DNA of 64,000 bases from a virus (IMGVR_UViG_3300045988_109843:1-64000), one strand, 5' to 3'. Shown: positions 159 through 53,368, numbered from the stretch's first letter. Numbers and translations are program-made. Notes: generated by a model not told the origin, from the sequence alone.

Positions 159-1382
159 TCATATAACCTCATGCAAGTTTTGTGAAATTGGTGTAGTAAT
201 TGGTGTAGTAGAAGACGTACTTTTTTCGGCAAAATTTTTTACAAATTCTTCAATAGACGCATCTTTGAAGACGTGCGCGTATACTTCTAGCGTGATTTTG
301 CTAGTAGAATGCCCCATGAAATATTGGACAGCCTTAATATTCATACCCGACTGAATCAGTCTTGAGCAAAAAGTATGACGAAACGTATGAGGGGTAATAT
401 GGGGAAGTGGATCTTCTGGATACATCTTGTTATAAGACTTCGTCAGAGATTTTATAAACGATTCGATATCTCGTGCTTGCCGCACTGTATTATACTGCCC
501 TGGAAATAAAAACCCACTTCTTCCATCAATAATAATATCGTTATCCGATTCGTGCCTTTTATCAATGACATTTTTAAAAGCATTTTTAGCCATCGGGGAT
601 AGTGGGATAATTCGGTTTCCGGCTTTGGATTTTGGTTTTAAAATAGTACGGTTCCCGCCTTTAGCTCGATAAATTTGATGGTCTATTTTTAGTATCCCAG
701 AATCCAAATCCACATCTTTTTCAGTCAATCCGCAAAACTCACTTGCTCGAATACCAGTTTCATAAAGAATCACAATATCATCAATACGTTTACGATAGAA
801 CCCATTGTTTTGCATGAATTCTAAAAGACTGTTGTATTGTTGATTCGTTATGATTTGTTTTTCTTTCGTATTACGCGGAATAACTTTCGACAATTTAAAA
901 GCAAAAGGATTTCTCGCGACTAAACCGTCCTCGTATGCGGCTTGAAAAGCGCATGATAAAATCGCACGATAATCGTTTACGCTGTCATAAGCAAGGCCAT
1001 TTTCGTAAAGCCCCTTCACCCACAACTTGGCATCAAAAACAGTTGTATTAGCGACCAGTCTACTTCCTATCGGATCGTTTTGTAGTCTCCTAATATAACT
1101 AGCATTTCTTTCAGCCGTTCTAATTCCAAGAGCATGAATTCTAGTATCGTTGTATCGCTTGACAAATTCATAAACAGTTAATTTAAGAGTATCGAAATCA
1201 GAGCCGCTAAGAATAGAATCTTGAATTTTCTTTTCTTTTTCTCTTAGCTCCTTCAAATCCCCAGCGTATACTGTGTGTCTCTTCCCCGCTCGATCTGTCC
1301 ACCGATATTGATACAACCCATCCTTTCGCTGGCTCTCACCTTCTTTTAGAACTTTTCCTTTGCTATCTTTTCTTCTTTCCAT
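159..1382 (-). CDS. tyrosine-type site-specific integrase (phage integrase family)
   Basis: 407 aa. C-terminal catalytic signature ...HTFRHTF...GHSTSKITLEVYAHV (R-H-R-Y box). Lies at the window edge. Confidence 0.85.
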   Translation of the reverse strand: MERRKDSKGKVLKEGESQRKDGLYQYRWTDRAGKRHTVYAGDLKELREKEKKIQDSILSGSDFDTLKLTVYEFVKRYNDTRIHALGIRTAERNASYIRRLQNDPIGSRLVANTTVFDAKLWVKGLYENGLAYDSVNDYRAILSCAFQAAYEDGLVARNPFAFKLSKVIPRNTKEKQIITNQQYNSLLEFMQNNGFYRKRIDDIVILYETGIRASEFCGLTEKDVDLDSGILKIDHQIYRAKGGNRTILKPKSKAGNRIIPLSPMAKNAFKNVIDKRHESDNDIIIDGRSGFLFPGQYNTVRQARDIESFIKSLTKSYNKMYPEDPLPHITPHTFRHTFCSRLIQSGMNIKAVQYFMGHSTSKITLEVYAHVFKDASIEEFVKNFAEKSTSSTTPITTPISQNLHEVI

Positions 1383-1643: not shown

Positions 1644-2471
1644 TCATCCAATCACCTCCTCCAGCTTGTGATCTCCATACTTTGCCACACATACATTATA
1701 AAGTAGCATGGCACGTGTCATAAGGCCAACTCCGCCGATACGAGGTGTAACTTTGATATCTTCCATCTCATAAATATCGTCAGCACAGTCGCCGTGTTGC
1801 TTTCCATTCTCGTCATAGTTGATGCCAACATCGATGCAGACTTCAACCCGATCAAGACCAAACGGTGTGATAAAGTTGCGCTTGCCCACAGCAGAGATAA
1901 TCACATCGACCATTTCAAATCCAAGAGCAGTGGCTTTCATGGCGGAACCTGTGCTGTTCACAGAAATCACATTACAGTGCCGCTTAATCAGCATATCAAC
2001 CAGCGGACGACCAACAATATCAGATTGACCGCATACAAGCACATTTTTGCCATCCAGATCGTAACCGATGGAGTCAAAAATCTTCATAACGCCAAGCGGA
2101 GTACATGGCTGAAATGGAGATGTAGTATTAAAACCATCAACATCAACTGCGTCTGGAATATAGATATTTTTGGGATTGATATGTTTTGGCAGCGGGAGCT
2201 GAACAATAATACCGTCTACATCTTCCCAATTATAATCTTCCAGTATTTTGTTATTTAATTCATCCTCCGTAATATTTTCTGGCAATTTGATAAGTTCTGC
2301 TTCGATTCCCACCTCTTCACAGTCACGCAGCTTGCCACGGATATAAGCATTAGACGCAGGGTTGTCCCCTACTTGATAAATATATAAAACAGGAGCGTAG
2401 TCGGTTTCTGCGATAATATTCTTGATTTTATTTTTGATATCTTGTGCAATAGATTTGCAATCAATAATCAT
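1644..2471 (-). CDS. folD: bifunctional 5,10-methylene-tetrahydrofolate dehydrogenase/cyclohydrolase FolD
   Basis: 275 aa. Collinear with E. coli FolD: YxxQVGxNPAS, DVDGF, PCTP, GxSxIVGRP, DVGIN, TPxxGGVGxMT. Confidence 0.9.
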   Translation of the reverse strand: MIIDCKSIAQDIKNKIKNIIAETDYAPVLYIYQVGDNPASNAYIRGKLRDCEEVGIEAELIKLPENITEDELNNKILEDYNWEDVDGIIVQLPLPKHINPKNIYIPDAVDVDGFNTTSPFQPCTPLGVMKIFDSIGYDLDGKNVLVCGQSDIVGRPLVDMLIKRHCNVISVNSTGSAMKATALGFEMVDVIISAVGKRNFITPFGLDRVEVCIDVGINYDENGKQHGDCADDIYEMEDIKVTPRIGGVGLMTRAMLLYNVCVAKYGDHKLEEVIG

Positions 2472-5688: not shown

Positions 5689-6222
5689 TTACTGCTTTCC
5701 GGTACTTCCAAACCCACCGACTCCACGCTCAGTTTCGTCCAATTCAGAAACTTCTTCAAAATCAGCCTGCCAGAACGGAACAACTGCCATCTGAGCAATG
5801 CGGTCACCATGAGTAATCATTTGAGGAATATTGGAATAGTTGTGGAGAGGAATAATGATCTCTCCACGATAATCCTGGTCTATGATTGGCACGGCGTTCA
5901 CGGGTGCAAGACCCTGCCTAGTGGAAAGACCGCTGCGAGCGAACCCTTGAATGTACCAACCTTCCGGCGGAGCCATCCGTAACCCAGTGTGTACCTTAAC
6001 GGTCTCATGCGGCTGAATCATAATACAACGATCACCATTCTTGTTTACCATCGTTGCGTCATCAAAACCAATATAAGCGTACAGGTCTGCACAAGCAGCG
6101 TTTTTTGAGCCATAAGTCGGCAGATGAGCATCTTCGTGCAGTTTATTGATTTTGATGTTTGGACGATACGGCAACCGACTCATGCCGTAACCAAGATTAG
6201 TAGTTGCATTTCCCAAATCCAT
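5689..6222 (-). CDS. dCTP deaminase / dUTPase-family protein
   Basis: dUTPase-fold motifs ...AACADLYAY..., ...IIDQDYRGEIIIPL... Start trimmed to MDLGNA (6220-6222) to avoid a 74-nt overlap with nrdG. Confidence 0.7.
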   Translation of the reverse strand: MDLGNATTNLGYGMSRLPYRPNIKINKLHEDAHLPTYGSKNAACADLYAYIGFDDATMVNKNGDRCIMIQPHETVKVHTGLRMAPPEGWYIQGFARSGLSTRQGLAPVNAVPIIDQDYRGEIIIPLHNYSNIPQMITHGDRIAQMAVVPFWQADFEEVSELDETERGVGGFGSTGKQ

Positions 6223-6223
6223 A

Positions 6224-6754
6224 TTATTTTCCTTTCTTATCTTCTGGAGTCCACCAAAGAGTTGGCTCTTTATACCCAAGACTCCAACTAATATCAATTA
6301 CTCGTTGGTTCTTACTTCCCATATATGGAAGTGAAATATCTTTTTCTGCTTCAATAAAAGGACCATCTACAAGGATGTTGATGTCAGCAAGAATGTCAGC
6401 CACAAGTCCATCCTGATTCCACAATTCTTCCCACTTGTATCCAGTCCAGAGCCAGACGTCTTTTTTGTTTAGAAATTCAGTCCACACACGATGGACGATT
6501 TTCTCAACAGCTTCTCTATTCTCCGGCAAGAGTGGATCCCCACCAGTAAGTGTAAGCCCCTGAATATAATCAGGTCGAAGTAAATCTATAATTTTATCGA
6601 GCGTTTCATCTGTGAATAGCTGACCACCATTCGGGTCCCATGTAGTAGGATTCTGACAGCTGGGGCAATGGTGATCACAACCCTGCACAAAAAGTGTGAC
6701 GCGCACCCCTTCGCCATTCGCTATATCACATGGAACAATTTTAGCGTAGTTCAT
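6224..6754 (-). CDS. nrdG: anaerobic ribonucleotide reductase activating protein NrdG (radical SAM)
   Basis: CDIANGEGVRVTLFVQGCDHHCPSCQNP = CxxxCxxC radical-SAM cluster typical of NrdG. Start taken at MNYAKIVPCD (ATGA overlap with the next gene). Confidence 0.85.
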   Translation of the reverse strand: MNYAKIVPCDIANGEGVRVTLFVQGCDHHCPSCQNPTTWDPNGGQLFTDETLDKIIDLLRPDYIQGLTLTGGDPLLPENREAVEKIVHRVWTEFLNKKDVWLWTGYKWEELWNQDGLVADILADINILVDGPFIEAEKDISLPYMGSKNQRVIDISWSLGYKEPTLWWTPEDKKGK

Positions 6755-7029
6755 TTTCCAACCTCGATTAAAAGACCGCAGAACGGGCAACGATTATAGC
6801 CAAGGCTTTCTGGCGACTCTTGTCCTTTAATTCCGCCACCACAATAATTACACACCCATGCCGAGCTCTCACAATTATCTACGAACTCAAATACAGTTGT
6901 TGGCTGGCGATCTACTTGAAAATCAATAACTCGTTCAACATCTTTTAGAGTTTTGATATATCCAAGATTTCCTTCCAGCAAAAGACAATCTTTTAATCTA
7001 TCAGCATTAACCAGTTTCATGTAGTTCAT
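6751..7029 (-). CDS. hypothetical zinc-ribbon protein
   Basis: 92 aa. CNYCGG...CPFCG. Confidence 0.4.
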   Translation of the reverse strand: MNYMKLVNADRLKDCLLLEGNLGYIKTLKDVERVIDFQVDRQPTTVFEFVDNCESSAWVCNYCGGGIKGQESPESLGYNRCPFCGLLIEVGK

Positions 7030-8825: not shown

Positions 8826-9034
8826 TACTCGTCCCTCTTTTTACGATACATTATAACAGTATACGGTTCATAACCATCTTCTTCCGTCCAGTCCAAACTA
8901 AAACCAGCACGTTGGTAGACTTCCATCTCAATTTGTTTTTCTGTCATATTGTCATCAACATAGAATTCAAAATTACAGTCTTCAAATCCTTTTGCTTTTA
9001 GAACTCCTGTAATTTTTTTCATAATGTACCCCAC
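8825..9034 (-). CDS. hypothetical protein
   Basis: 69 aa. Confidence 0.4.
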   Translation of the reverse strand: MGYIMKKITGVLKAKGFEDCNFEFYVDDNMTEKQIEMEVYQRAGFSLDWTEEDGYEPYTVIMYRKKRDE

Positions 9035-9707: not shown

Positions 9708-10215
9708 CTTTTACTTCAACCGTACAAATTGTATCGTTGTGCCATCCGCCATGCGGGACTAAAAGAATGCGAGTGATTTCAAATCCATACTTGCGCCCTA
9801 TGCCACCGGAGTTCCAACCGAATGTAATGACCTTTCCGCCGGGCTTTACAATTCTTGAGATTTCCTTCTTTTGGTTACCCCAGAATGATGCCCGTGTTGT
9901 TTCGCTCGTCACATTCATACCGACACCCTGATAACACTCTGTTACCTGACGCGGAGAATATGGCGGATCATATAACACACCATCGACAGATTTATTTTGA
10001 AATGTTTTCAAGAAGTCGAGTGCATCCATGTGGTAGTCTGTATCAAAATCTGGATTCAAGTCATTCGTAATAGCTGCTAATTTATTTTGATTCGCAAACG
10101 GGTCAATCCATGTCCCATTGGTTAGTTCTGATTGAATCAATTCTTTAATAGGCTTGATATCAAATGTATTCTTGTTTGGCATCGCCCACCGTCTTTGAAT
10201 GTCTATGTACATCAC
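9700..10215 (-). CDS. putative DNA N6-adenine/N4-cytosine methyltransferase (DPPY motif)
   Basis: 171 aa. VLYDPPYSP (motif IV) is preceded by a degenerate IDPFANQN motif-I-like segment, a Dam-like order. Small for a methyltransferase. Confidence 0.5.
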   Translation of the reverse strand: MMYIDIQRRWAMPNKNTFDIKPIKELIQSELTNGTWIDPFANQNKLAAITNDLNPDFDTDYHMDALDFLKTFQNKSVDGVLYDPPYSPRQVTECYQGVGMNVTSETTRASFWGNQKKEISRIVKPGGKVITFGWNSGGIGRKYGFEITRILLVPHGGWHNDTICTVEVKVA

Positions 10216-10252
10216 ACCCTTTCATGCCACCACACCCACCCTGCTAGTTTAT

Positions 10253-10471
10253 TTACTTACCTCGGCTACCTTTGATAAAACATTCAAGCAAAATCAGTAC
10301 CAGCCAGATACCGGTTGCTACTTTGATGGTAAACGTAATATTCAGCAGCTTAAAAATCAGCCAGATAATACCTATCGTGGTAATCCACGAGATAAAATAT
10401 GTAGCCACCAGAATTAGAACAATTCCAAGAAAAGAACAAAGTGCCTTAAAGAGATTTTTCCATGTGTTCAA
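10253..10471 (-). CDS. small membrane protein (holin-like?)
   Basis: 72 aa with 2-3 predicted transmembrane helices. Function not supported beyond topology. Confidence 0.35.
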   Translation of the reverse strand: MNTWKNLFKALCSFLGIVLILVATYFISWITTIGIIWLIFKLLNITFTIKVATGIWLVLILLECFIKGSRGK

Positions 10472-10576
10472 TTTATCGCCTCCATTTCTGACGATAACGC
10501 GTTATATTTTATTAACGCATTTACGCTAAAATTTTCATTTTATAGTAATCCCACCAACCCACCACTTACACGTTAT

Positions 10577-13500
10577 TTAATTGTCGCTTAAATGAACTAC
10601 TCGATCTCGAATTTCCTGAGTGCGACCCTGATTCCAGAAATGACTCCCTACGTACCCACAAGTACGCCGTGCAACGTTCATTTTGTTCTGATCGCGATTA
10701 CCACAATTAGGACACTCCCACACCAGCTTGCCGTCGTCCTCCACGATCTTGATCTCGCCGTCGTAGCCACACACCTGACAGTAGTCAGACTTGGTGTTCA
10801 GCTCTGCATACATGATGTTGTCGTAGATGAACTTCATAACGCTAATTACAGCAGGAATATTCTGCTGCATGTTGGGCACTTCCACATAGCTGATGGCACC
10901 GCCCGGCGAAAGCTTCTGGAACTCGCTCTCGAACTTCAGCTTGGTGAAAGCGTCGATGTGTTCACGAACATTGACATGGTAAGAATTGGTGATGTACTCA
11001 TGATCAGTTACTTCAGGAATAATACCAAAGCGCTTTTGCAGGCACTTGGCAAACTTGTAGGTGGTGGATTCCAGCGGGGTGCCATAGAGAGAGTAGTCCA
11101 TATTCTCGGCCTTCTTCCACTCTGCGCACTTGTCGTTCATGTGCTGCATGATTTCAAGAGCGAACGGCTTTGCTTCTTCATCGGTGTGGCTCTTGCCGGT
11201 CATATACTTCACGCACTCATACAGGCCGGCATAGCCCAGACTGATGGTGGAATAGCCGCCGAACAGCAGCTTGTCGATCTTTTCACCCTTCTTCAGGCGT
11301 GCCAATGCTCCATACTGCCAATGGATAGGACTCATGTCGGAAACAGTTCCGAGTAAACGCTTATGTCGAATCTGAAGTGCTCGATGGCACAATTCCAGAC
11401 GCTCATCAAAAATCTTCCAGAACTTATCTTTGTCTTTTTCAGAGCTGCAAGCCACATCTACCAAATTGATAGTAACCACGCCCTGATTGAAGCGACCATA
11501 ATATTTCTGACCCTTCACCCAATTCTTTGCGTTAGCCACATTCTCAGTGGTTCGGTCAGGCGTTAGGAATGATCTACACCCCATGCTTACCCACACGCCA
11601 CCTTTGAGTTCCTTCATAACCTTTGCGGAAATGTAATCAGGAACCATACGCTTTGCAGTACACTTAGCGGCCAACTCCGTCAGGTAATAGTATTTAGAAT
11701 CAGGATGAATATTATCCTCATCGAGAACGTAGATCAGCTTCGGGAACGCAGGAGTAATCCATGCTCCGGTCTCATTTTTAACACCCTGAATACGCTGTTT
11801 TAGCATTTCTTCAATGATAACAGCCAAGTCATCACGAGTCTGTCCTTCAGGAACTTCATCAAGATACATAAACACAGTGATGAAAGGGGCCTGACCGTTA
11901 GTAGTCATCAGCGTAATCACCTGATACTGGATGGTTTGAACGCCACGAGCGATTTCTTTATGTAAACGTTCTTCAACAATGCGATTGATGGTTTCTTTTG
12001 CTGGCATCTTGTCAATCTCATTGTTTTGAACCATATCGTAGAATTCCTGATGGACTTCTTTCTCAATTTTCTTACGAGAAACATCTACGAACGGAGCCAG
12101 ATGAGATAAGGTAATGCTCTGACCACCGTATTGGTTAGAAGCCACCTGAGCAACGATCTGTGTAGCGATATTGCAGGCGGTGGAGAAGCTGTGCGGTCGG
12201 TCAATTCCAGTACCAGAGATTACAGTACCGTTCTGCAGCATATCCTCCAGGTTGACCAGATCACAATTACCGGTGACAATACCACCATCCAATGTAAACG
12301 AATGAGTCTCTGGTTCTTCAACACACCAAGCGTCATATTCGATTTCCGGTCTGTAAGACCTAATTTTCTTCACGACCCATGGGTTGTTAGGAATTTGATA
12401 CTTTCGGAATCTAAAATCAATAAGCCGAGCCCCTTTTTTAAAGTTCGTGTCGTGAATAATCTCCGATTCACTTGCAATATAAAAACCAGCAACAGAAGAA
12501 ATCTCTCGAATCATATTGGCTACTCGGTCGTCTGCTGTTGCAACTTTGTTGGTTTTTACTGCCCCATCGGCAGCATAAAATCCTTCAAATAAATATTGCT
12601 TCCCCTTATCATCTAAGAATCTCCATGCTTTTGCATTCAAGAAATCTTGCTTAAATGCCCCCTTGTGTAAAACATAAGCATCTCCATGGTATGATTCCGG
12701 GTATGTAACAGTGTCACCAGCCTTCACAAAATAATTTGCATATTTAGACTTGTCTCCACATAAGCGAATCGTAGTATAATCCGTCTTTTTGTCAAGACCA
12801 TCTCCGATTGCGAAACCAGTTGCCCACGCCTGATAGTCTTTTTTCGCTGTCATTTCGGATTTATGTAATTCAGGAAGTAACGCAAGAGTCATACCCTCTG
12901 TCAGATTCGTCGTTACGCTTCCGTCTTTTAACAGCCATCTATGATTCGCCGTACAGAAAATATGTTTAACGGATCGACCGGACTGGATCATAACGTCTTG
13001 CATTTTCTGCTTTCCATACTTTTTTACAGTGGCTGTATGCCATTCACCATCAGCACCAATAACTTTAATTTCCTGTCCATCATTAAAGTCTCTGAACTCT
13101 TTAACACCACTATCCGTTACAAAACGAGTATTGCTCTTAAAGCAGTTGTGCATATGTTGAACGAAATAATCAGTGTCATGTACATGAATGATGCCAGCCT
13201 TATGCGCATCCAGAATATCCTTCGGAAGCAACAGTCGCTCTGTTAATTCTTTTGATACCTCACCAGCCATATAATCGCGTTGGACGCTGTTTACAGTTGG
13301 GTTCTTATTACTATTTTCCTGATTGATTGCATCGTTCCGAATATCGATGATATCCAAAATGCTCGCATTAGTCTTTTCCTTTTCTCGGATTTCTTGACGA
13401 TATTTACGCCACTGACTATACGCTTCTGCTACATCTGAAAAAGGACTATTTTTCAGACTGTCAACCACGATATCCTGAATCTGCTCAACCGATAGGATAT

Positions 13501-13651
13501 CTGGCATGTCTGCGATGTAGTCAGCAATCGCATTCGACACACGAGCGTCGATACCACCCGGCGTACAGGTCATCGCCTTCTCGATTGCATTTACAATCTT
13601 ACTTTTATCAAAAGGAACTTTCGTTCCATCGCGTTTAATCACATATTCCAT
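10577..13651 (-). CDS. nrdD: anaerobic ribonucleoside-triphosphate reductase NrdD, interrupted by an intein
   Basis: N-terminal ATP-cone (VIKRDGTKVPFDKSKI). C-terminal Zn ribbon (CQVCGY...CPNCGN) and glycyl-radical motif RRTCGYVG. 1024 aa versus about 700 for NrdD. The intein is at aa 170-462. Confidence 0.9.
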   Translation of the reverse strand: MEYVIKRDGTKVPFDKSKIVNAIEKAMTCTPGGIDARVSNAIADYIADMPDILSVEQIQDIVVDSLKNSPFSDVAEAYSQWRKYRQEIREKEKTNASILDIIDIRNDAINQENSNKNPTVNSVQRDYMAGEVSKELTERLLLPKDILDAHKAGIIHVHDTDYFVQHMHNCFKSNTRFVTDSGVKEFRDFNDGQEIKVIGADGEWHTATVKKYGKQKMQDVMIQSGRSVKHIFCTANHRWLLKDGSVTTNLTEGMTLALLPELHKSEMTAKKDYQAWATGFAIGDGLDKKTDYTTIRLCGDKSKYANYFVKAGDTVTYPESYHGDAYVLHKGAFKQDFLNAKAWRFLDDKGKQYLFEGFYAADGAVKTNKVATADDRVANMIREISSVAGFYIASESEIIHDTNFKKGARLIDFRFRKYQIPNNPWVVKKIRSYRPEIEYDAWCVEEPETHSFTLDGGIVTGNCDLVNLEDMLQNGTVISGTGIDRPHSFSTACNIATQIVAQVASNQYGGQSITLSHLAPFVDVSRKKIEKEVHQEFYDMVQNNEIDKMPAKETINRIVEERLHKEIARGVQTIQYQVITLMTTNGQAPFITVFMYLDEVPEGQTRDDLAVIIEEMLKQRIQGVKNETGAWITPAFPKLIYVLDEDNIHPDSKYYYLTELAAKCTAKRMVPDYISAKVMKELKGGVWVSMGCRSFLTPDRTTENVANAKNWVKGQKYYGRFNQGVVTINLVDVACSSEKDKDKFWKIFDERLELCHRALQIRHKRLLGTVSDMSPIHWQYGALARLKKGEKIDKLLFGGYSTISLGYAGLYECVKYMTGKSHTDEEAKPFALEIMQHMNDKCAEWKKAENMDYSLYGTPLESTTYKFAKCLQKRFGIIPEVTDHEYITNSYHVNVREHIDAFTKLKFESEFQKLSPGGAISYVEVPNMQQNIPAVISVMKFIYDNIMYAELNTKSDYCQVCGYDGEIKIVEDDGKLVWECPNCGNRDQNKMNVARRTCGYVGSHFWNQGRTQEIRDRVVHLSDN
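12266..13144 (-). mobile_element. intein with LAGLIDADG homing-endonuclease domain inside nrdD
   Basis: Starts with Cys (HMHN|CFKSNTRF) and has block B TANH. LAGLIDADG-like motifs TGFAIGDG and LFEGFYAADG. Ends ...HSFTLDGGIVTGN|CDLVNLED (terminal Asn, +1 Cys). 293 aa. Confidence 0.7.
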
Positions 13652-13662
13652 ATAATCACCTC

Positions 13663-15186
13663 TTACTCAGCATCCTGCGCATCGTTCTTTTCAGAAACAA
13701 TCGTCGAATCGCTTACAAGATTCACATTCTTAGTGACCTTTGCATCGTAACTGTTGGCACGGACGATTTCCTTCATATCAATGCCAGTTGCTTCACGAAC
13801 GGCCTCAAAAGTCTGAGCCATGACTGCCGGGACATTACCGGAAATCTCAGAAACACCATTTGCGTTACTGCCAATGATGGAAACCTTGTCAATGGACGCC
13901 AGCGGCTTTGCAACCTCAGCTGCAATGCTAGGGAGAATCTTAATGATCATTTCGCCCATGGCCGCACCATTATACTGCTTGTAAGCTTCAGCCTTCTTCA
14001 GCATAGCTTCTGCTTCAGCAAGACCCTTCTGCTTGATGGCCTCAGCTTCTGCCATACCGACCATGCGGATACCTTCTGCTTCCTGTTCCTTAGCGAACTT
14101 TGCGGATTCTGCAGAACGCTCCGCCTCGTACTTCTTTGCTTCAGCTTCCTTCTGACGCTTATACAGGTCGGCATCTGCCTGCTTACGAACTTCCGCATCC
14201 AGCTTCTGCTGGCGAACTTCTGCTTCCTTAGCAGCCAATTCAACCATCTTTTTCTGCTGTGCAATAGCTGCATCTGCTTCAGCTTCCTTAATTTCCTTGT
14301 CACGGAGGTTCATCTGAATCTGACCAGCCGCCTCAGCATCAGCATTTGCCCTATCTGCCTTAGTCTTCAGAGCAGCCTGAGCCAGCAGATACTCATTGTT
14401 GCGCTGGGCAATAGCAGTCTTGGACTCGATTTCCTTCTCGTTTGCTTCACGGGCAGTATCAGCCTTTGCGCGAGCAATGTCACGAGCAGCTTCTGCCTTA
14501 GCAATTTCAGCCTGCTTCTTCACCAGTTCTTCCTGCTGAACACCAATTGCCTCGATGACACCGTGATTATGACCCTGAGCATCAATAGCATCCTTGATGT
14601 CCTGAACATTAAAGGTAACAACCTCCAGACCCATCTTTGCAAGATCAGGACGAGCATTCTCAACAACAGAGATAGCCATCTGCTTACGGTTAGTCAGAAT
14701 GTCGTTGACAGTCATTTCAGAAACAATCTCACGCAGATTACCCTGCAGGACATCGTTAATCTTCTCGTTGATACCATCTTCGCTCATGCCAAGGAAGTTA
14801 GAAATAGCAGCCTGCTGACGGGCACTGATATAGGTCTTGGCATCTGCACAGCCCGCACTCTTGATTTCCTCGTCAGTTACAGTAGAGTTTTCAGAGTAAA
14901 CCTGAACAGTAACAACAGAGTCCAACCACAGAGAAACGCCCTCTTTAGTCTTAACACCGGTCTCAGGAGTCTTGACATCAATCTTGAGCAGTCGCATATT
15001 CAGACGATCAGCTCGCTGAATGACAGGAAGGACGAACACGCCACGACCACAGATAACCTTCGGCTTAGACAGGCCAAAGCCAGTCACAACGATTGCCTGA
15101 GTCGGAGGTGCCTTTTTATAGCAAGTAAATGCAAAAGCAACCAGAACGACAACAATGACAGGAATTGCAATAAGCATCATATTCAT
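13663..15186 (-). CDS. flotillin-like SPFH/band-7 protein (FloT homolog)
   Basis: 507 aa. N-terminal transmembrane segment, then an SPFH domain collinear with B. subtilis FloT (IVVTG...G.FVLPV.Q.A..L.....K.DV.TPE; MTV.EI..NR; DLAKMGL.VVSF.V.D). Long Ala/Glu/Lys coiled coil. Confidence 0.85.
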   Translation of the reverse strand: MNMMLIAIPVIVVVLVAFAFTCYKKAPPTQAIVVTGFGLSKPKVICGRGVFVLPVIQRADRLNMRLLKIDVKTPETGVKTKEGVSLWLDSVVTVQVYSENSTVTDEEIKSAGCADAKTYISARQQAAISNFLGMSEDGINEKINDVLQGNLREIVSEMTVNDILTNRKQMAISVVENARPDLAKMGLEVVTFNVQDIKDAIDAQGHNHGVIEAIGVQQEELVKKQAEIAKAEAARDIARAKADTAREANEKEIESKTAIAQRNNEYLLAQAALKTKADRANADAEAAGQIQMNLRDKEIKEAEADAAIAQQKKMVELAAKEAEVRQQKLDAEVRKQADADLYKRQKEAEAKKYEAERSAESAKFAKEQEAEGIRMVGMAEAEAIKQKGLAEAEAMLKKAEAYKQYNGAAMGEMIIKILPSIAAEVAKPLASIDKVSIIGSNANGVSEISGNVPAVMAQTFEAVREATGIDMKEIVRANSYDAKVTKNVNLVSDSTIVSEKNDAQDAE

Positions 15187-15198
15187 GTACTTTTCTCC

Positions 15199-16005
15199 TT
15201 AATCTTCCAACCAACGATTTTCAGCCACATAGAAAGCACCAACTGCAACAGTCATAAGTGCAATCCATAATACCCAGAACCAAATTACTCGTGTGCCAGC
15301 CGCCGAAATCATATAATCTCGTGCTTCTTCGATATTTTTGTCCTTAATGAATTGCGCATCATGCACAGTTTTGTCGCTTAAATTCGCGTATAATGTACCA
15401 TCATAACGAACATCTTTGACATAAAATTCAAATTTTACATGAGAGCTGACCTGTACCGTAGTCAGGTACTTGCTAGATGGCATCTTGATATCGCCATACT
15501 TAAATTCTTTGCCAAGAAACATAATATTCTTAGAATTGTGTTCTTCTGAACTGTAATAATCCCAAGTCCAGTACGTTTCGACTCTTGTTCTTGTATGACC
15601 TTTGCCATCCGTGGTAGTGACAGTTCGTGTATGCATCGTGTAATGCTTTTCTTCGCAATAGATATACATCCACTGACCGTCGATACGTGAATCGCTTACG
15701 GTATCTACTGCTTCTAGTGCGCCTTGGCAAAACGCATTACCTACGTTGGTTCTCATTCCATAATCGAACATATTTTCGGACTCAATCGAAATTGCTGTAT
15801 TATATTCTTTTTTCTGCTCAAGCGAATCTCTAGTGATATTTCCAGCGATAACACTACCAAGTATCAGCATAATGAACACAATACCAACACTGACGATCAA
15901 TTCACGATAAGTAATTTCGGCATTACCGATTTTCAAAAAGGTCCCCGACTGCCGGTGCCGCCTCATTCCCCTCATAGGACAGATACTCATAATTCTGAAC
16001 CTCAT
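15199..16005 (-). CDS. membrane protein of unknown function (possible LemA partner)
   Basis: 268 aa. Transmembrane helices near both ends flank a ~180 aa domain. The start is uncertain because the track ORF overlaps lemA by 83 nt. Confidence 0.45.
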   Translation of the reverse strand: MRFRIMSICPMRGMRRHRQSGTFLKIGNAEITYRELIVSVGIVFIMLILGSVIAGNITRDSLEQKKEYNTAISIESENMFDYGMRTNVGNAFCQGALEAVDTVSDSRIDGQWMYIYCEEKHYTMHTRTVTTTDGKGHTRTRVETYWTWDYYSSEEHNSKNIMFLGKEFKYGDIKMPSSKYLTTVQVSSHVKFEFYVKDVRYDGTLYANLSDKTVHDAQFIKDKNIEEARDYMISAAGTRVIWFWVLWIALMTVAVGAFYVAENRWLED

Positions 16006-16495
16006 ATCCAGTCAGACCAAGCAGAAAGGAGTTCGGAAACTTACGAACGCTCTGCTTATATTCCTTTACAACACGATTGTAGTCGCCACGATAATTTGCA
16101 ATCAAATTTTCAGTGACGGATAGCTCGTTCATAAGCTCCTTGTAGTTGTCACTGGACTTCAGTTCAGGATATGCTTCCGCAATAGCTGCAATCTGAGTCG
16201 TAATCTCCTGGGCGGTCTGGCCGGAAGTGCCACGAGCATTCACAACATCCATTAAAGTCTGATACTCGTGCTGGTCATAAGCCTTGACGGTTTCAACCAG
16301 ATTTGGAATCAGATCAGCCCTGCGCTTCTCCTGAATTTCAATACCAGACTTAGCCTCTTGAATCTGTTCCTCGTAAGAGATAGCCGTGTTCTTCGGTCCT
16401 TGCACCATGAATGTCATACCGAGAATAGAGAGAAGAACGACACAGATAACGATAATAGGTAACTTCCAGTTGTATCTCATATATGTAAACCTCAT
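15923..16495 (-). CDS. LemA family protein
   Basis: 190 aa. N-terminal transmembrane segment. RRADLIPNLVETVKAYDQHE...ARG and AYPELKSSDNYKELMNELSVTENLIANYRGDYNRVVKEYKQSVRKFP match the LemA family. Confidence 0.8.
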   Translation of the reverse strand: MRFTYMRYNWKLPIIVICVVLLSILGMTFMVQGPKNTAISYEEQIQEAKSGIEIQEKRRADLIPNLVETVKAYDQHEYQTLMDVVNARGTSGQTAQEITTQIAAIAEAYPELKSSDNYKELMNELSVTENLIANYRGDYNRVVKEYKQSVRKFPNSFLLGLTGYEVQNYEYLSYEGNEAAPAVGDLFENR

Positions 16496-16577: not shown

Positions 16578-17063
16578 TTAGAACTTGACCTCATCGGCAC
16601 AATCAGGAACCACGGCAGTTTCAATGTTGCACATCGGTTCTGCCTTTGCTAGCTTTTCTTTGAATGAATCATCAGTACGATAAACCAAATCACGGCAGAC
16701 ACCGCCGGGATTCAGACTGTAAAAATAATCGTTAATATCTTTCTTTACCATCGTAGTCAGCTTGTCAGTAACCTCGTTAGGAACTTTCTTGAGCGTATCT
16801 ACGACACTTTCGGCAACCTTCTGCTGTTCCTCTAAAAGCCGGATTTTATAGTCCAAATACCAACGTGCCTTCGTCAAATCTTGAAGCTGAGAATTACCAT
16901 CTTTGTGTCCTGCCCGGCTCAAATACTTACCAACGTTCCAAAGATAAGCATCTTTGTCCAGCTGCCACTCTCGCAGCACCTTAATAGCCTCATAGGGATT
17001 GTCTGCACCGCCGTAATGGGCTGGATGATCTACGTTCTTCTTAATTTCATCAAGTGTTTGCAT
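16578..17063 (-). CDS. DUF3310 family phage protein
   Basis: 161 aa. HPAHYGG...IEAIKVL...NVGKYLSRAGHKDG...DL.KARWYL matches the DUF3310 signature common in phage nucleotide-metabolism modules. Confidence 0.6.
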   Translation of the reverse strand: MQTLDEIKKNVDHPAHYGGADNPYEAIKVLREWQLDKDAYLWNVGKYLSRAGHKDGNSQLQDLTKARWYLDYKIRLLEEQQKVAESVVDTLKKVPNEVTDKLTTMVKKDINDYFYSLNPGGVCRDLVYRTDDSFKEKLAKAEPMCNIETAVVPDCADEVKF

Positions 17064-17841
17064 TTAATGCCTCCTGTTTCAGTTTGTCGTATTTATCACG
17101 AATCTCGTGGAACTTACCACAAGACATCATACCTTCAGTACAACCATTACCACAGCAGTTTGGGCCAGCACACTTAAACAGATGAGGAGCAATTGGATAA
17201 ACCAGTTTCAGCATCTCAGTTGCAAGCTCCCTGATTTCCGGCTGCGCTCGCTCACAACAACGCAGGTTAAAGAAATTATTCAACGAACGAGCGTTCATTG
17301 TAACAATCATTTTTGTAGAACAAGCATTTGGAAGAACAGAACGTGCATTCTCGTTTGCAATCTTGGATGCTTTTGCGCGTGCCTTTTTCTCAGTCAGGCG
17401 AGAGTCAGCAACCATCAGTTCCTCAGTAATCTTGTCCTCAAGAATCTGGCACAGGTGCTTATAGGAGTATTCAGCAGTCTGAATTGCCTGTTTAAATACC
17501 TCTCTTGCTTCGCTATCATCGTCGATAACATCAGGAATGATGATTTCCGCATTATTCATTCGCACATAGCGCTGACTTTGTACACTGAATGATGCAATGC
17601 GATGCCGTGTAATCTGGGCAAGCAAAGCCCGGCTCACACCTTCAATCCCAAAAGTAAAAGTCACATGCTCCGTAGGACTAGCGTGACCAAGGCTAGAAAG
17701 CCGATTCAGAAACTCATCAACCTTCTCATCGGTCAGTCCATCCATCAAATCCTGAATACTCGAATTGGAGTAGCACAACTTTGCGGCGGCAGCTACCACC
17801 TTTTCAGGATCAGGAGTATGTGTAATCAGTTTAACTACCAT
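17050..17841 (-). CDS. thyX: flavin-dependent thymidylate synthase ThyX
   Basis: 263 aa. ThyX signature RHRIASFSVQSQRY. Confidence 0.9.
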   Translation of the reverse strand: MVVKLITHTPDPEKVVAAAAKLCYSNSSIQDLMDGLTDEKVDEFLNRLSSLGHASPTEHVTFTFGIEGVSRALLAQITRHRIASFSVQSQRYVRMNNAEIIIPDVIDDDSEAREVFKQAIQTAEYSYKHLCQILEDKITEELMVADSRLTEKKARAKASKIANENARSVLPNACSTKMIVTMNARSLNNFFNLRCCERAQPEIRELATEMLKLVYPIAPHLFKCAGPNCCGNGCTEGMMSCGKFHEIRDKYDKLKQEALNANT

Positions 17842-19719: not shown

Positions 19720-20016
19720 TCACAAATCAGCAAGCTGTACAGGAGAATTGATATCTGGACTATCCAAATCCATCCCAAACTCCTCAGACATTTCATTCTT
19801 GATTCCCCAAAAGTAACCTTCTGATGGAACGTAAACAATAGTCCACCATCCATACGCTTCTTTATTCTTGGGCGTGAATTCACGAGTTGGAATTCGATTA
19901 CCGCCAAAGCTAATTGTTGTGGTTTTGGATGGATTCTCAACACATTTGTTATCAAGAATCCGAAGAATATGTTTAATGGACTTCTTAGAAAGATTCATAG
20001 CTTTCTCCTTAGCCAT
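19720..20016 (-). CDS. hypothetical protein
   Basis: 98 aa. Confidence 0.45.
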   Translation of the reverse strand: MAKEKAMNLSKKSIKHILRILDNKCVENPSKTTTISFGGNRIPTREFTPKNKEAYGWWTIVYVPSEGYFWGIKNEMSEEFGMDLDSPDINSPVQLADL

Positions 20017-21340
20017 AGCTTACTTCGTTCTTATCGTCTCGGAATCGCACAAAGGTCGGGAATTGCAGAGACTCAAGACCAGTCTTTTTGTCCATCGTGA
20101 CTTCTTTGTATTTACACTCCACAATCTTGCCAATGTAGTCATCGGGATTCGCCCGCACAGCAGCTCTCGTAGCATCATCAAAACCAGAACCAATGCGAAG
20201 CTCATTACCCTTATAATCCACAACGAGAGCTCCCATCGTGCCAGCCAGACGGTTCTGGCCTTCCTCGATTGCAGTGATTCGCAGATCAACAGTATAAAAA
20301 CGCTTAATTTTGAGACATCCGTTGTGACGAGCCCGGCGATAAGGGACATCCGTGTTCAACATAAGACCTTCCCAATCGTGCTCAACCGCATAATCAAGCC
20401 ACTTTGGAATCACGTTTTGGTCTTTCCCTTCATAGACCATGGGAACAATCTCAATATTTTCAAGGTTCTTGTGAGCAATCTCTGCACGAAGGCAATTCAA
20501 CCATTCACGGCGCGTCCGATACGGAACCGTGCATTTACTGCGGTCGAACTCGACAACAGGAATCACATCAAAAATCACAAATTTGATTTCAGTCTTGTCC
20601 TTATTGTCAGAATTAAGTAGGCCAGTTCCGAAACGAAACGCCTCTCCGTCCGACATTCCTTCGGGATTCTTGTAGATAAGTTCTCCGTCAAATACCAAAG
20701 AATCTCGCCTCGTCGCATCGCCGTCATACAGAGAAAGCAGGTCATTCTTTATATGGTCGAGCCCTTTAAACTTCTGAGCCTGCCGAGAGATAAGCTCGCC
20801 TCTATGCATGGTGCCCCTGTTTCCATTCATCTTCTGGCTCAAGCTGAACCAAATACCATCCTTCAGCTTAACCTTATCAATCGGGTATCCCTGCTGAACC
20901 TCCCAGACAGGAACAATTTCCTCGCCATATACCTTATTGATGGTAGTTGCTTCCACACCAATTGGCAGATTCTTAGTAAACAGTCGTTTCAGAAACTCTT
21001 CGTACTCAGGATTTTTATGTAAATAATTCTGGATTGTTGCAATAGATGCATCAGAGCCGGTATTGTGACCAGCACCCATAATATAAAGGTATCCGCAGCT
21101 GAGATACTGAACGTCGATATCCGGCTTTGCAGTTACCTTCTTATTGATCTTTGCGTCCGACAGTCCAGTAACAATTGCCGGGTCGAGCAGGAATCGGAAA
21201 AACGCCATCAGTTCATCAGCTTCATCTCCAAAATCCTTACGTGCATCCAGCAAAATGCGGGTCTTATCCGTCTTCTTCTTTGCTTTCTGCAATGCCTTAA
21301 CCATCGCATCAAGCTTACCTATGAGCTCTTTATCTGTCAT
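20009..21340 (-). CDS. ATP-dependent nucleic-acid ligase (DNA-ligase-like nucleotidyltransferase)
   Basis: 443 aa. Motif I KMNGNR (KxNG rather than KxDG), motif III LVFDGELIY, motif IV EGLMLN, motif V LKIKR. Confidence 0.7.
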   Translation of the reverse strand: MTDKELIGKLDAMVKALQKAKKKTDKTRILLDARKDFGDEADELMAFFRFLLDPAIVTGLSDAKINKKVTAKPDIDVQYLSCGYLYIMGAGHNTGSDASIATIQNYLHKNPEYEEFLKRLFTKNLPIGVEATTINKVYGEEIVPVWEVQQGYPIDKVKLKDGIWFSLSQKMNGNRGTMHRGELISRQAQKFKGLDHIKNDLLSLYDGDATRRDSLVFDGELIYKNPEGMSDGEAFRFGTGLLNSDNKDKTEIKFVIFDVIPVVEFDRSKCTVPYRTRREWLNCLRAEIAHKNLENIEIVPMVYEGKDQNVIPKWLDYAVEHDWEGLMLNTDVPYRRARHNGCLKIKRFYTVDLRITAIEEGQNRLAGTMGALVVDYKGNELRIGSGFDDATRAAVRANPDDYIGKIVECKYKEVTMDKKTGLESLQFPTFVRFRDDKNEVSYG

Positions 21341-51447: not shown

Positions 51448-52064
51448 TTCTTTTCAAACAGATCGTTACGAACTTTCGGAGTGAACTGACGAGCGCCAAG
51501 CTGCTCAATAGCAGTTTCCAGCTTGCCATCTCCCCACTCTCTGGTTTTTGTGTTCATAACAATTTCAAGCAAAAGCTTTGCATCCTTAGCTTCTCTACGC
51601 TTCCGGCGAGCTCTTTTAAGTTCTGCCATAAGCTGATAACCTTGTGCTGCATTCACAGTCTTGAACTCAATAGCGTGTTCAATATCAGCAATCTCATCGC
51701 TGGCCGCAGTTAAATCGCCGTAGACTTTGGTGTATAAATCATTGAGACTGCCCATTGTTTTGTCTGTAATCTCAAGATTTTTCTTCAACTCGGTCAACCA
51801 TTCAGAATCTTCTATGTGAAATGCATATGTATTCGGCTTTGCAGCCGGAGCCGTTATATTCGGACTCTTACTTGCAGCTTCGATTTCATCCATAGGCTTC
51901 GGTGCATAGTGTCCGTTTTTATACCCGGCGGGAAGTTTGTTAATTTCACAAATCGCCAGTCCCTTAGATTCAAACTGTAATGCCAGATTGATATCACAGG
52001 TGGCGCAAATTCGACCTCCCTTCCGTTTCATAATATAGTTGTGACCATTCGAGATTACATACAT
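51444..52064 (-). CDS. hypothetical protein
   Basis: 206 aa. Confidence 0.5.
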   Translation of the reverse strand: MYVISNGHNYIMKRKGGRICATCDINLALQFESKGLAICEINKLPAGYKNGHYAPKPMDEIEAASKSPNITAPAAKPNTYAFHIEDSEWLTELKKNLEITDKTMGSLNDLYTKVYGDLTAASDEIADIEHAIEFKTVNAAQGYQLMAELKRARRKRREAKDAKLLLEIVMNTKTREWGDGKLETAIEQLGARQFTPKVRNDLFEKN

Positions 52065-53368
52065 TACTTACTCTCCTGCTCTTTCATCAGCTCTTTAACC
52101 GCTTTCTTGAACATCCGCATAGCCTTGTCATTCTCAAGGAATACTTTTGTCTTGGGACTCGGAACACGACCATGAATACGCTTATACTGCTTCATCATGT
52201 TTTCCATCTTAGTGAATCCAATCTTGTTGTAAACCATACGATAGGTTTTATGATAATGAATAGTTTTATCACCGAGTTTTTGAGCCAGCGGTTCAATAAT
52301 CGGAACCAGACGAGTTGCCGTTTCACTCTGTTTCTTAGGCTTCTCATCCACAACTTCTTTAACTTCAACTTCAACTACAGGATCGTCGTTTACATTCACT
52401 TCTGGAGCTGCTTCAATACCCTTCAAAACCGGACAAAGTTCGTTTTGATTCTGATGCAGACGCTCAATAGACGCCGCGTACATGTCTGCGACAACAGCAC
52501 CCATAACGGATTTCCAAGTGGAGTCTTCTTCGATAATATCAATCGTAGAGATTTTTCCACTACGATTCGTTCTCTTAATATACTTTGCACGAGCATCTTC
52601 CAAAACGAAACCATAATTACGATTTAAATATTCATAGATCTTGTGAAGCGTTTCTTTATTCGTGTAACCTTTTGTATTTGCAATCACACCGATCTTGCTA
52701 TACAAATCTTTACGCCAGTCACTCATTTCATCCTGAAACACATTGCGAGGAGTGTAGCTCTTAGCACGAATCGCGTTATCCATCTGCTTGTCCTTAATCT
52801 GATGGACACACTGAGATACGCTGCTAATCACATTCAGCGCTTCGTTGCTAGTAGCGCGAGCTTCCTCAATCTGTTCACTAAGATCCTTGCGAGTGGAATC
52901 AAGTTCACTCTGAAGATTCTTCATGCTATCAAATAGAGCGTGAAGTCTTACATCAATGAACTCCTTGCTCAATGCAGCATCCATCTGAGGAGTAGCCAGA
53001 ACGGAATCACCACGCATTAGAGATTCCATAATGTCCCAGCAGAAATCCATGAACGCATCTGCTTTCGGCTGACGTGACAGACGGCAGATTTCCATAACAC
53101 CACGCAAACTGTAAACAATATATTCACGTTCCTTCGTGATTCCGCCCTCAACTTTCCTCAGTTTGAGGAATGTTGAAAGAGGGTCAAGACGATCCGTATT
53201 CTTAACATGGATGTTTTGAATTGCCTTATTAGGATTATTGTACTCTAGCGCCGCACCAATCTGTTCACGAGTCATGTAATACTGGTGCTTGTCATTCTGG
53301 TACACATCCACATTCAGTGCGCCAAAGGACTTTGAGGTTATTACGGTCATAGGATTGTTGGTAGTCAT
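52064..53368 (-). CDS. Bro-N domain antirepressor-like protein
   Basis: 434 aa. The N-terminal ~120 aa (FGALNVDVYQNDKHQYYMTREQIGAALEY.NPNKAI...) resemble the Bro-N/KilA-N family. Long C-terminal extension. Confidence 0.55.
   Translation of the reverse strand: MTTNNPMTVITSKSFGALNVDVYQNDKHQYYMTREQIGAALEYNNPNKAIQNIHVKNTDRLDPLSTFLKLRKVEGGITKEREYIVYSLRGVMEICRLSRQPKADAFMDFCWDIMESLMRGDSVLATPQMDAALSKEFIDVRLHALFDSMKNLQSELDSTRKDLSEQIEEARATSNEALNVISSVSQCVHQIKDKQMDNAIRAKSYTPRNVFQDEMSDWRKDLYSKIGVIANTKGYTNKETLHKIYEYLNRNYGFVLEDARAKYIKRTNRSGKISTIDIIEEDSTWKSVMGAVVADMYAASIERLHQNQNELCPVLKGIEAAPEVNVNDDPVVEVEVKEVVDEKPKKQSETATRLVPIIEPLAQKLGDKTIHYHKTYRMVYNKIGFTKMENMMKQYKRIHGRVPSPKTKVFLENDKAMRMFKKAVKELMKEQESK

Follow-up and report, generated by a model that had tools for sequence, protein, structure and literature searches.

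The hypervariable accessory slot between a DUF3310 gene and nrdD in a large human-gut phage holds two independent cassettes stacked one after the other, one encoding a flotillin and the other a LemA-family protein together with a second membrane protein; the three genes do not make up one unit. The phage is a member of a lineage of about 130 kb that encodes an integrase. The stretch of it analysed here, IMGVR_UViG_3300045988_109843:1-64000 (64,000 nucleotides, referred to below as the window), carries both cassettes, with lemA followed by the gene for a protein with two transmembrane (TM) segments, here called 2TM, and then by flotillin; thyX and DUF3310 lie upstream, and nrdD, encoding an anaerobic ribonucleotide reductase, lies downstream. 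A first-pass annotation of this DNA had recognised a FloT-like flotillin collinear with FloT, a LemA protein and a two-TM protein within the thyX to nrdD block. All three open reading frames (ORFs) are present on the minus strand where it had placed them, and Pfam, NCBIfam and PHROG matches supported their identities. It had also treated the three genes as one block, a view that had to be given up: flotillin is separate from LemA+2TM, and relatives carry one cassette, the other, both or neither.

The content of the slot was determined by mapping the proteins of the window onto related loci, on contigs that are not phylogenetically independent of one another. Flotillin occurs alone on 18 IMG/VR contigs, where it is 94–99% identical to that of the window, while LemA+2TM occurs alone on 47 (LemA 95–98% and 2TM 89–95% identical). 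Both cassettes are present in the window. Its flotillin was found in identical form in independent human-gut assemblies (17 contigs), and each of the six contigs examined has the order thyX, DUF3310, LemA (185 amino acids), 2TM (258), flotillin (507), nrdD. Neither cassette is present in MT835556, a more distant relative. The idea that LemA+2TM had been inserted solely in the window was overturned by a scan based on 2TM, which returned the 47 related contigs. The flanks of the slot are kept, DUF3310 in all relatives and NrdD in relatives likewise, and the cassette junctions are exact, each cassette being a set of ORFs that has a ribosome-binding site of its own and fits between the preceding stop codon and the next ribosome-binding site.

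Small hydrophobic ORFs were also found in the slot. In the window, most of the 97-nucleotide spacer between DUF3310 and lemA is filled by a candidate ORF of 28 amino acids with a TM segment (MRNENDTYLIFAIFFFIVAPGLALMAFR), the start of which overlaps the DUF3310 stop codon. This candidate is identical in six other contigs with both cassettes and exists in two diverged, still hydrophobic versions in relatives, and it is absent from many. A conserved hydrophobic ORF of 29–31 amino acids (MRYNWEEPFAAFALFVTMLIFGFAKFVLR) lies upstream of flotillin in the flotillin-only relatives (L007-L024, at about 5880–5975). Its ribosome-binding site and first five codons (MRYNW) are those of lemA, and it may represent a remnant, a recombination joint or a small partner peptide.

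The surrounding genes are mosaic as well. When the window is compared with related loci (L007-L084), thyX is either 97–100% or about 34% identical despite near-identical LemA or flotillin; nrdD is about 99, about 90, about 86 or 26–35% identical, and the ligase 74–96%. Since the thyX, nrdD and ligase alleles vary gene by gene, this lineage exchanges single genes as cassettes. Most relatives also have a second SPFH gene just 3' of nrdD, encoding a 283-amino-acid Band_7 protein whose N-terminus resembles that of a lipoprotein (phrog_200, 1.9e-54). It was found at 9855-10706 of locus L020 and in about 45 other related loci, and the window is without it. The gene is present in 39 of the 47 LemA+2TM-only contigs, in 7 of the 18 flotillin-only contigs and in none of the seven contigs of the window type (0/7), counts that come from non-independent samples and include a few loci too short to score. 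This pattern suggests that flotillin and the phrog_200 SPFH protein may substitute for each other. Compared with the window flotillin, which itself matches phrog_200 only weakly (6e-5), the phage SPFH lipoproteins of phrog_200 are shorter, begin with what looks like a lipoprotein signal and have neither the coiled coil nor the Flot domain. An SPFH lipoprotein is also mentioned in one recent phage paper, which describes its role as unclear (PMC13239085).

Outside this clade, at least three other phage lineages have the genes in the same order, LemA, 2TM, flotillin; phage-like contigs of 350–410 kb are among them. On a 108 kb NCBI assembly contig (L025/L026), a cluster member of which is annotated in Clostridium sp. 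TM06-18, LemA and 2TM are followed by a 120-amino-acid TM protein and then by flotillin. Here LemA is 50%, 2TM 39% and flotillin 78% identical to the proteins of the window, and these discordant values imply that flotillin and the LemA pair were joined separately in the two lineages. The same contig has, 3' of flotillin (L025 10419-13691), three tandem paralogues of 323, 323 and 438 amino acids made of repeats of about 55 amino acids (GEKRVMNNGLEAEIIAYR...). Directly adjacent trios at 30–47% identity were found on IMG/VR contigs of up to 411 kb (L236, L237 and L240-L244), with neighbours like those of very large phages (dUTPase_2, a short ligase dependent on nicotinamide adenine dinucleotide (NAD), a CCA-adding enzyme, a patatin and many hypothetical proteins). 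On a 120 kb contig binned with Congzhengia (L125), flotillin lies 2.5 kb downstream of LemA+2TM, among genes for NAMPT, NAD synthase and related functions. Given about 110 stretches with flotillin and 593 or more with 2TM among 2.9 million IMG/VR contigs, an independent distribution of the two cassettes would put both on about 0.02 contigs (110 x 593 / 2.9 million), a crude figure with no phylogenetic correction. The recurrence of this order at 30–50% identity argues for a functional link. The pairing of LemA with flotillin, which the first-pass annotation had called atypical for bacteria, is recurrent in phages.

The flotillin has the same layout as Bacillus subtilis FloT (YuaG), with an N-terminal anchor, an SPFH domain, an Ala/Glu-rich coiled coil and a flotillin C-terminal domain. 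Pfam matched residues 25–233 to Band_7 (PF01145, 8.4e-20, 72 bits against a cut-off of 23.6) and residues 374–452 to Flot (PF15975, 3.3e-8, 34.1 bits against a cut-off of 27). An Ala/Glu/Lys-rich coiled-coil stretch can be read in the translation at residues 215–410 or so, and residues 3–22 (MMLIAIPVIVVVLVAFAFTC) are hydrophobic and followed by KK, forming a putative N-terminal anchor. Residues 6–477 align with positions 5–474 of the 477 in the NCBIfam FloT model NF058507 (E 6e-76), with a score of 256 bits against an equivalog cut-off of 700, and the protein is therefore a member of the flotillin family and not a FloT equivalog. It is also homologous over nearly its whole length to the human flotillins, residues 27–489 matching flotillin-1 (PDB 9L3G/9BQ2) at E 1.7e-48. 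The human flotillin complex consists of two paralogous subunits, flotillin-1 and flotillin-2, with different membrane anchoring, whereas in the window there is one gene, whose product has a hydrophobic segment at its N-terminus.

FloT is encoded in a yuaF-floT-yuaI operon. In contrast, the window flotillin is phage-encoded and stands beside LemA and a protein of TM/beta/TM architecture, and no partner gene of the NfeD, YuaF or YqiJ type was found beside it, the neighbours being LemA, phrog_3886, DUF3310 and NrdD. An NfeD-like identity for 2TM, or for the small proteins upstream of other phage flotillins, was rejected after Pfam gave no such match at E values up to 1. NfeD had been put forward as the usual partner, which is not the case in this flotillin lineage, where the closest bacterial chromosomal copies are solitary.

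More than 5,000 flotillin homologues were detected. The closest ones outside the phage clade are 76–79% identical and include solitary chromosomal genes of gut bacteria, one among glycoside hydrolase and transporter genes and another next to thiamine biosynthesis genes; other near homologues are in phage-like contexts. Proteins at least 90% identical to the window flotillin were found on contigs of up to 478 kb. Among 17 related phage contigs, the ratio of nonsynonymous to synonymous substitution rates (dN/dS) for flotillin is 0.02–0.07, with dS reaching 0.75. GC content at third codon positions (GC3) is 0.47 for flotillin, 0.46 for nrdD and 0.48 for the ligase, compared with 0.73–0.88 for bacterial chromosomal homologues. 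The 1-kb segment around flotillin has the highest overall GC of the region (0.486), which reflects the Ala/Glu-rich composition of the protein. Recent capture from a host was rejected, since despite 76–78% amino acid identity to cellular flotillins the GC3 is phage-like and dS within the clade extends to 0.75. With this codon composition and dN/dS, flotillin is neither host contamination nor a decaying passenger, and it is best described as bacterial in type and long resident in phages. As for its being an unusual phage cargo, this is true of deposited phage records, of which 10 in 50,697 contain it, several as short fragments; in IMG/VR, however, a profile-guided scan found at least 110 flotillin-encoding stretches. 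Close flotillin homologues are sometimes called as fusions with AAA ATPase domains (P0006, 786 amino acids), and in a phage-like context a 612-amino-acid AAA_5 protein is encoded a few genes downstream of flotillin (L028 11781-13619); both echo the operons of flotillin with AAA+ proteins described in bacteria (PMC11237479).

The LemA protein matches PF04011 over residues 49–183 (1e-33, 116.7 bits against a cut-off of 26.2), as well as phrog_1383 (5.9e-35) and PDB 2ETD (1.8e-28). It has an N-terminal TM helix, seen as a hydrophobic stretch after MRYNWK, and a helical bundle. The most likely start gives 185 amino acids (MRYNWK...), a choice backed by relatives and by gene calls of that length, and dN/dS is 0.02–0.05. 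The 2TM protein belongs to phrog_3886 (2.6e-68, residues 25–267 against 2–263 of the 263 profile positions); it has no NCBIfam match and no Pfam match even at E values up to 1, and none of its 531 detected homologues (0) has a Pfam domain. It had been described as a 268-amino-acid protein with two TM segments. The protein is real, but 268 is the length of the maximal ORF, and homologues and gene callers back 245–258 amino acids; the start is most likely at 15975, 15966 or 15936 (258–245 amino acids), overlapping the 3' end of lemA. Its dN/dS is 0.07–0.14. The N-terminus is rich in Arg and Lys and is followed by a long TM helix, a beta domain of about 150 amino acids and a second TM helix. An AlphaFold2 model built with 25 homologues (predicted local distance difference test score 87) shows the same plan, with the all-beta domain at about residues 49–198. 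A search of the fold database BFVD with this model gave as its best match a homologous 269-amino-acid phage protein (TM-score 0.76), and the other matches were weak ones to giant-virus ORFans.

In nearly all of about 160 loci from IMG/VR and bacterial genomes, lemA is directly upstream of 2TM; the bacterial loci are mainly from Lachnospiraceae and other Clostridia, and the exceptions to pairing are mostly truncated loci. LemA+2TM is a tight, conserved pair of many Firmicutes phages and prophages. The only bacterial locus studied in detail, in Blautia producta, is a prophage with the pair between the small and large terminase genes. The pair is present in Enterococcus Schiekvirus phages such as EFDG1, among nrdD, tmk, pnuC, a nicotinamide mononucleotide adenylyltransferase gene and thyA; in Lysinibacillus phage LC76P1; in the gut phages MT835477 and MT835973, just upstream of packaging genes; and in Lactococcus garvieae phage PLg-TB25, where the LemA-family ORF23 is followed by ORF24 for a 269-amino-acid membrane protein. 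EFDG1 gp156-gp157 form the same module in the same order, with LemA 44% and 2TM 29% identical to those of the window, and PLg-TB25 ORF23-ORF24 also keep the order, with LemA 40% identical. Unlike in the window, flotillin is not adjacent to the pair in EFDG1 or PLg-TB25. Some records label LemA a 'virion structural protein', and we did not find the basis for this label.

All genes of the region around the flotillin block are on the minus strand (Table 1). The first-pass annotation had reported 12-nucleotide gaps between the genes. The gap between 2TM and flotillin is indeed 12 nucleotides, but that between flotillin and nrdD is 11, and the start of 2TM overlaps the end of lemA. A consensus scan at the cassette junctions found no promoter or terminator above shuffle controls. 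Between positions 9000 and 21500 there are 19 terminator-like hairpins, against 8.3 +/- 3.1 in shuffled sequence; they are mostly inside coding regions and none is at a cassette boundary. The tight spacing and the absence of convincing signals make it plausible that the three genes are co-transcribed with the thyX to nrdD genes. The downstream continuation into nrdG and dcd, which had also been proposed, is correct as to strand, but these genes are about 3.8 kb past nrdD, with folD further downstream.

Table 1. Positions of the genes and other features discussed, in the coordinates of the window.
Feature	Position	Strand	Remarks
Integrase, tyrosine-type	159-1382	-	phrog_1, 3.7e-62
FolD-type methylenetetrahydrofolate dehydrogenase/cyclohydrolase	1644-2471	-	adjoins integrase
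dcd/dUTPase-like gene	5689-6297	-	
nrdG	6224-6790	-	
Two-TM protein, 72 amino acids	10253-10471	-	phrog_36365, 7.6e-10
NrdD	10577-13651	-	NRDD 1.1e-191, ATP-cone, Gly_radical; downstream edge of slot
Intein-like insertion in nrdD, about 293 amino acids	12266-13144	-	
FloT-like flotillin, 507 amino acids	13663-15186	-	Band_7, Flot, FloT model
2TM membrane protein	15199-~15975 (maximal ORF to 16005)	-	phrog_3886; start most likely as given in the text
LemA-family protein, 185 amino acids	15923-16480 (maximal ORF to 16495, 190 amino acids)	-	PF04011; start most likely at 16480
Candidate hydrophobic small ORF, 28 amino acids	16492-16578	-	
DUF3310 protein	16578-17063	-	PF11753, 9.9e-12; upstream edge of slot
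thyX	17050-17841	-	Thy1, 2.1e-69
ATP-dependent ligase	20009-21340		
Ant-like protein	52064-53368	-	

The window also encodes a DNA polymerase III (Pol III) alpha subunit, a DnaB-like helicase, a primase, a RecJ-like exonuclease, DNA methyltransferases and a RecD2-like helicase in addition to the ligase. Related IMG/VR contigs are 70–150 kb in length, mostly 110–140 kb. The integrase with its FolD neighbour and the Ant-like protein suggest a temperate lifestyle for this phage of about 130 kb with its own Pol III alpha. The 72-amino-acid two-TM protein, another small membrane protein in the gene string, is encoded directly downstream of nrdD and is kept in relatives such as L010. The first residue of the insertion in nrdD is Cys (CFKSNTRF...), and its last residues are ...VTGN, with Cys next after them, in the fashion of inteins; Pfam reported neither an intein nor a Hint domain in it. 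Its presence varies among related contigs, most of which are without it: nrdD is uninterrupted (HCHNCDLVNLEDM) in most related phages, and some have other nrdD alleles or insertions.

The explanation that we favour, tentatively and at somewhat less than even odds, is that the trio is a membrane-conditioning accessory module that boosts a host function, keeping the membrane fluid, intact and energised until lysis. The genes would be co-transcribed with those for nucleotide metabolism. Flotillin would be anchored through residues 3–22 with its bulk in the cytoplasm, and would oligomerise, probably like other SPFH proteins, as a cage or microdomain on the inner face of the membrane; the near full-length homology to human flotillin-1 supports such an oligomer. 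LemA and 2TM would insert into the same membrane with their soluble domains outward, the beta domain of 2TM being predicted outside from the Arg/Lys-rich N-terminus by the positive-inside rule, and the helical bundle of LemA probably being exposed there too (PMC3905215 for LemA). Their joint effect, in infection or in the lysogen, would be to condition the cytoplasmic membrane of the host until programmed lysis.

Three lines of evidence favour membrane conditioning. The flotillin is near-cellular in sequence and strongly constrained. In cells, SPFH proteins have dedicated membrane proteins as working partners in envelope-stress modules, as in B. subtilis, where the sigma-W stress response involves the membrane proteins YdjG and YdjH together with PspA and the SPFH protein YdjI (PMC8581546, PMC11237479). 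Membrane-stabilising proteins also measurably alter phage lysis, as DynA does in changing lysis timing (PMC8844932). The PspA-YdjG-YdjH-YdjI operon likewise joins two integral membrane proteins and an SPFH protein in a membrane-protective complex (PMC8581546, PMC11237479); YdjI, however, lacks an anchor of its own and YdjH has a TPM domain, whereas the window flotillin has its own anchor, and Pfam found no TPM domain in 2TM or LemA. The resemblance is one of functional analogy only. The LemA-family protein MamQ is needed for magnetosome membrane formation (PMC3905215); the window LemA matches the MamQ model at 1.9e-20, with 73 bits against a cut-off of 250, and the organism and context are unrelated.

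Several observations weigh against a joint role. Interaction among LemA, 2TM and flotillin is a hypothesis, and with the LemA and 2TM domains predicted outside and flotillin inside, contact would be possible only through the TM segments. Within the clade the two cassettes look like alternatives rather than partners. LemA+2TM is without flotillin in 112 of the 113 loci outside the clade. Of 101 flotillin loci, 94 are without LemA+2TM. Each cassette can therefore do without the other being encoded by the phage, and their association is facultative. The non-independence of the contigs also means that contig counts overstate the number of independent events. The beta domain of 2TM resembles no solved structure, as Foldseek gave nothing below E 0.01 against the PDB and no informative fold match, and neither NCBIfam nor PADLOC gave a functional hint for the trio.

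The main rival to membrane conditioning is superinfection exclusion or surface masking, which we consider unlikely though better placed than the readings that follow. LemA and 2TM, facing outward, would keep competing phages from injecting their DNA or from using receptors, flotillin might reorganise membrane domains, and the slot would be a hotspot of phage-phage competition. Superinfection-exclusion proteins as a class share no sequence signature that defines them. The products are all membrane proteins with the predicted topology given above. Like known competition hotspots, the slot shows presence and absence and alternative cassettes, and in temperate phages and prophages LemA+2TM is among the accessory genes next to the packaging genes; with an integrase and an Ant-like protein in the window, lysogenic expression is conceivable. 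Exclusion proteins, however, are usually small, lineage-specific and fast-evolving, whereas the flotillin has the strong conservation described, both in its identity to cellular flotillins and in its dN/dS. Moreover, junctions of 11–12 nucleotides leave no room for a separate promoter, and in PADLOC-DB 2.0 flotillin and 2TM had no match and LemA matched only at the level of noise (E >= 0.016).

It is rather doubtful that the cassettes have no functional link at all and simply landed in one recombination-prone slot, the trios elsewhere being due to coincidence or shared descent. This would fit the highly mosaic clade, with its allele swaps of thyX, nrdD and the ligase, in which each cassette mostly occurs without the other, and the short motifs of stop codon and ribosome-binding site common to the junctions could promote illegitimate exchange. 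The occurrence of the same order at 30–50% identity in at least three other lineages, however, is far above the rough chance expectation, and the mismatch in identity to L025, 78% for flotillin against 50% and 39% for LemA and 2TM, favours independent assembly over shared descent.

Two further roles for flotillin seem improbable, and to about the same degree. In the first, a membrane protease of the host, such as FtsH, would be confined or modulated by the flotillin cage, which would tune the stability of phage or host regulators, including those of the lysis-lysogeny decision. SPFH cages formed by HflK/C of E. coli enclose FtsH and affect the stability of lambda CII, and Bacillus flotillins interact with FtsH. 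These precedents, the integrase and Ant-like regulator of the phage and an identity to cellular flotillins that makes co-assembly with host partners plausible speak for protease control, but nothing at the locus points to a protease or a regulator target, the recurrent LemA+2TM neighbourhood is left unexplained, and the trio is also present on the 350–410 kb phage-like contigs. In the second, put forward in the first-pass annotation for replication or lysis complexes, a flotillin microdomain would be a scaffold anchoring complexes for replication, nucleotide synthesis, assembly or lysis. The cassette is in the region of thyX, nrdD, the ligase and Pol III alpha, and in other large phages LemA+2TM is beside nucleotide or NAD genes (EFDG1 and L125). 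Most accessory genes of large phages sit in the replication region, however, which makes co-location a weak argument; in small temperate phages the pair adjoins terminase genes instead, and the cassettes are dispensable in close relatives.

The notion that misassembly had put a piece of host chromosome into a phage contig, suggested by the identity of flotillin to bacterial chromosomal genes and by the regional GC peak, was rejected as having next to no likelihood: the arrangement is identical on 17 contigs from independent assemblies, flotillin occupies the same position in 18 IMG/VR phage contigs, the junctions are exact, GC3 is like that of the neighbouring phage genes, and more than 65 related contigs have syntenic phage flanks, where the first-pass annotation had allowed for host-like flanks and absence from relatives.

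The literature search turned up no paper on what a flotillin or LemA encoded by a phage does. The paper on phage Perkons deals with integration into the host floA gene rather than with a flotillin of the phage. The cassette polymorphism of the slot, the recurrent order LemA, 2TM, flotillin in unrelated phages and the possible interchange with an SPFH lipoprotein appear to be undescribed, no paper on them having been found. By sequence, LemA and phrog_3886 are existing families without known function, and the flotillin is a new phage-borne member of its family. Carried further, and with less confidence than membrane conditioning itself, the data could be read as a three-component phage membrane system in which an inner flotillin cage corrals outward LemA/2TM complexes. 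Phages from temperate ones of about 40 kb to huge ones of more than 400 kb would deploy all or part of it to mend or remodel the host membrane or to keep competitors out, and the SPFH lipoprotein would be an interchangeable scaffold.

SPFH proteins, flotillins among them, organise membranes universally, and what they do in bacteria is still debated; LemA is very widespread without an established function. In a phage lineage abundant in human-gut metagenomes, flotillin and LemA are kept by strong purifying selection and exchanged as cassettes, and the isogenic variants that carry flotillin, LemA+2TM, both or neither provide a natural genetic system for membrane effects. If the two cassettes are not functionally linked, the locus remains a record of an accessory-gene hotspot with sharp boundaries in large gut phages. 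If they are, this would give LemA its first partner and context, and it would mean that phages manipulate membrane microdomains, with a bearing on lysis timing, superinfection and host defences that target membranes.

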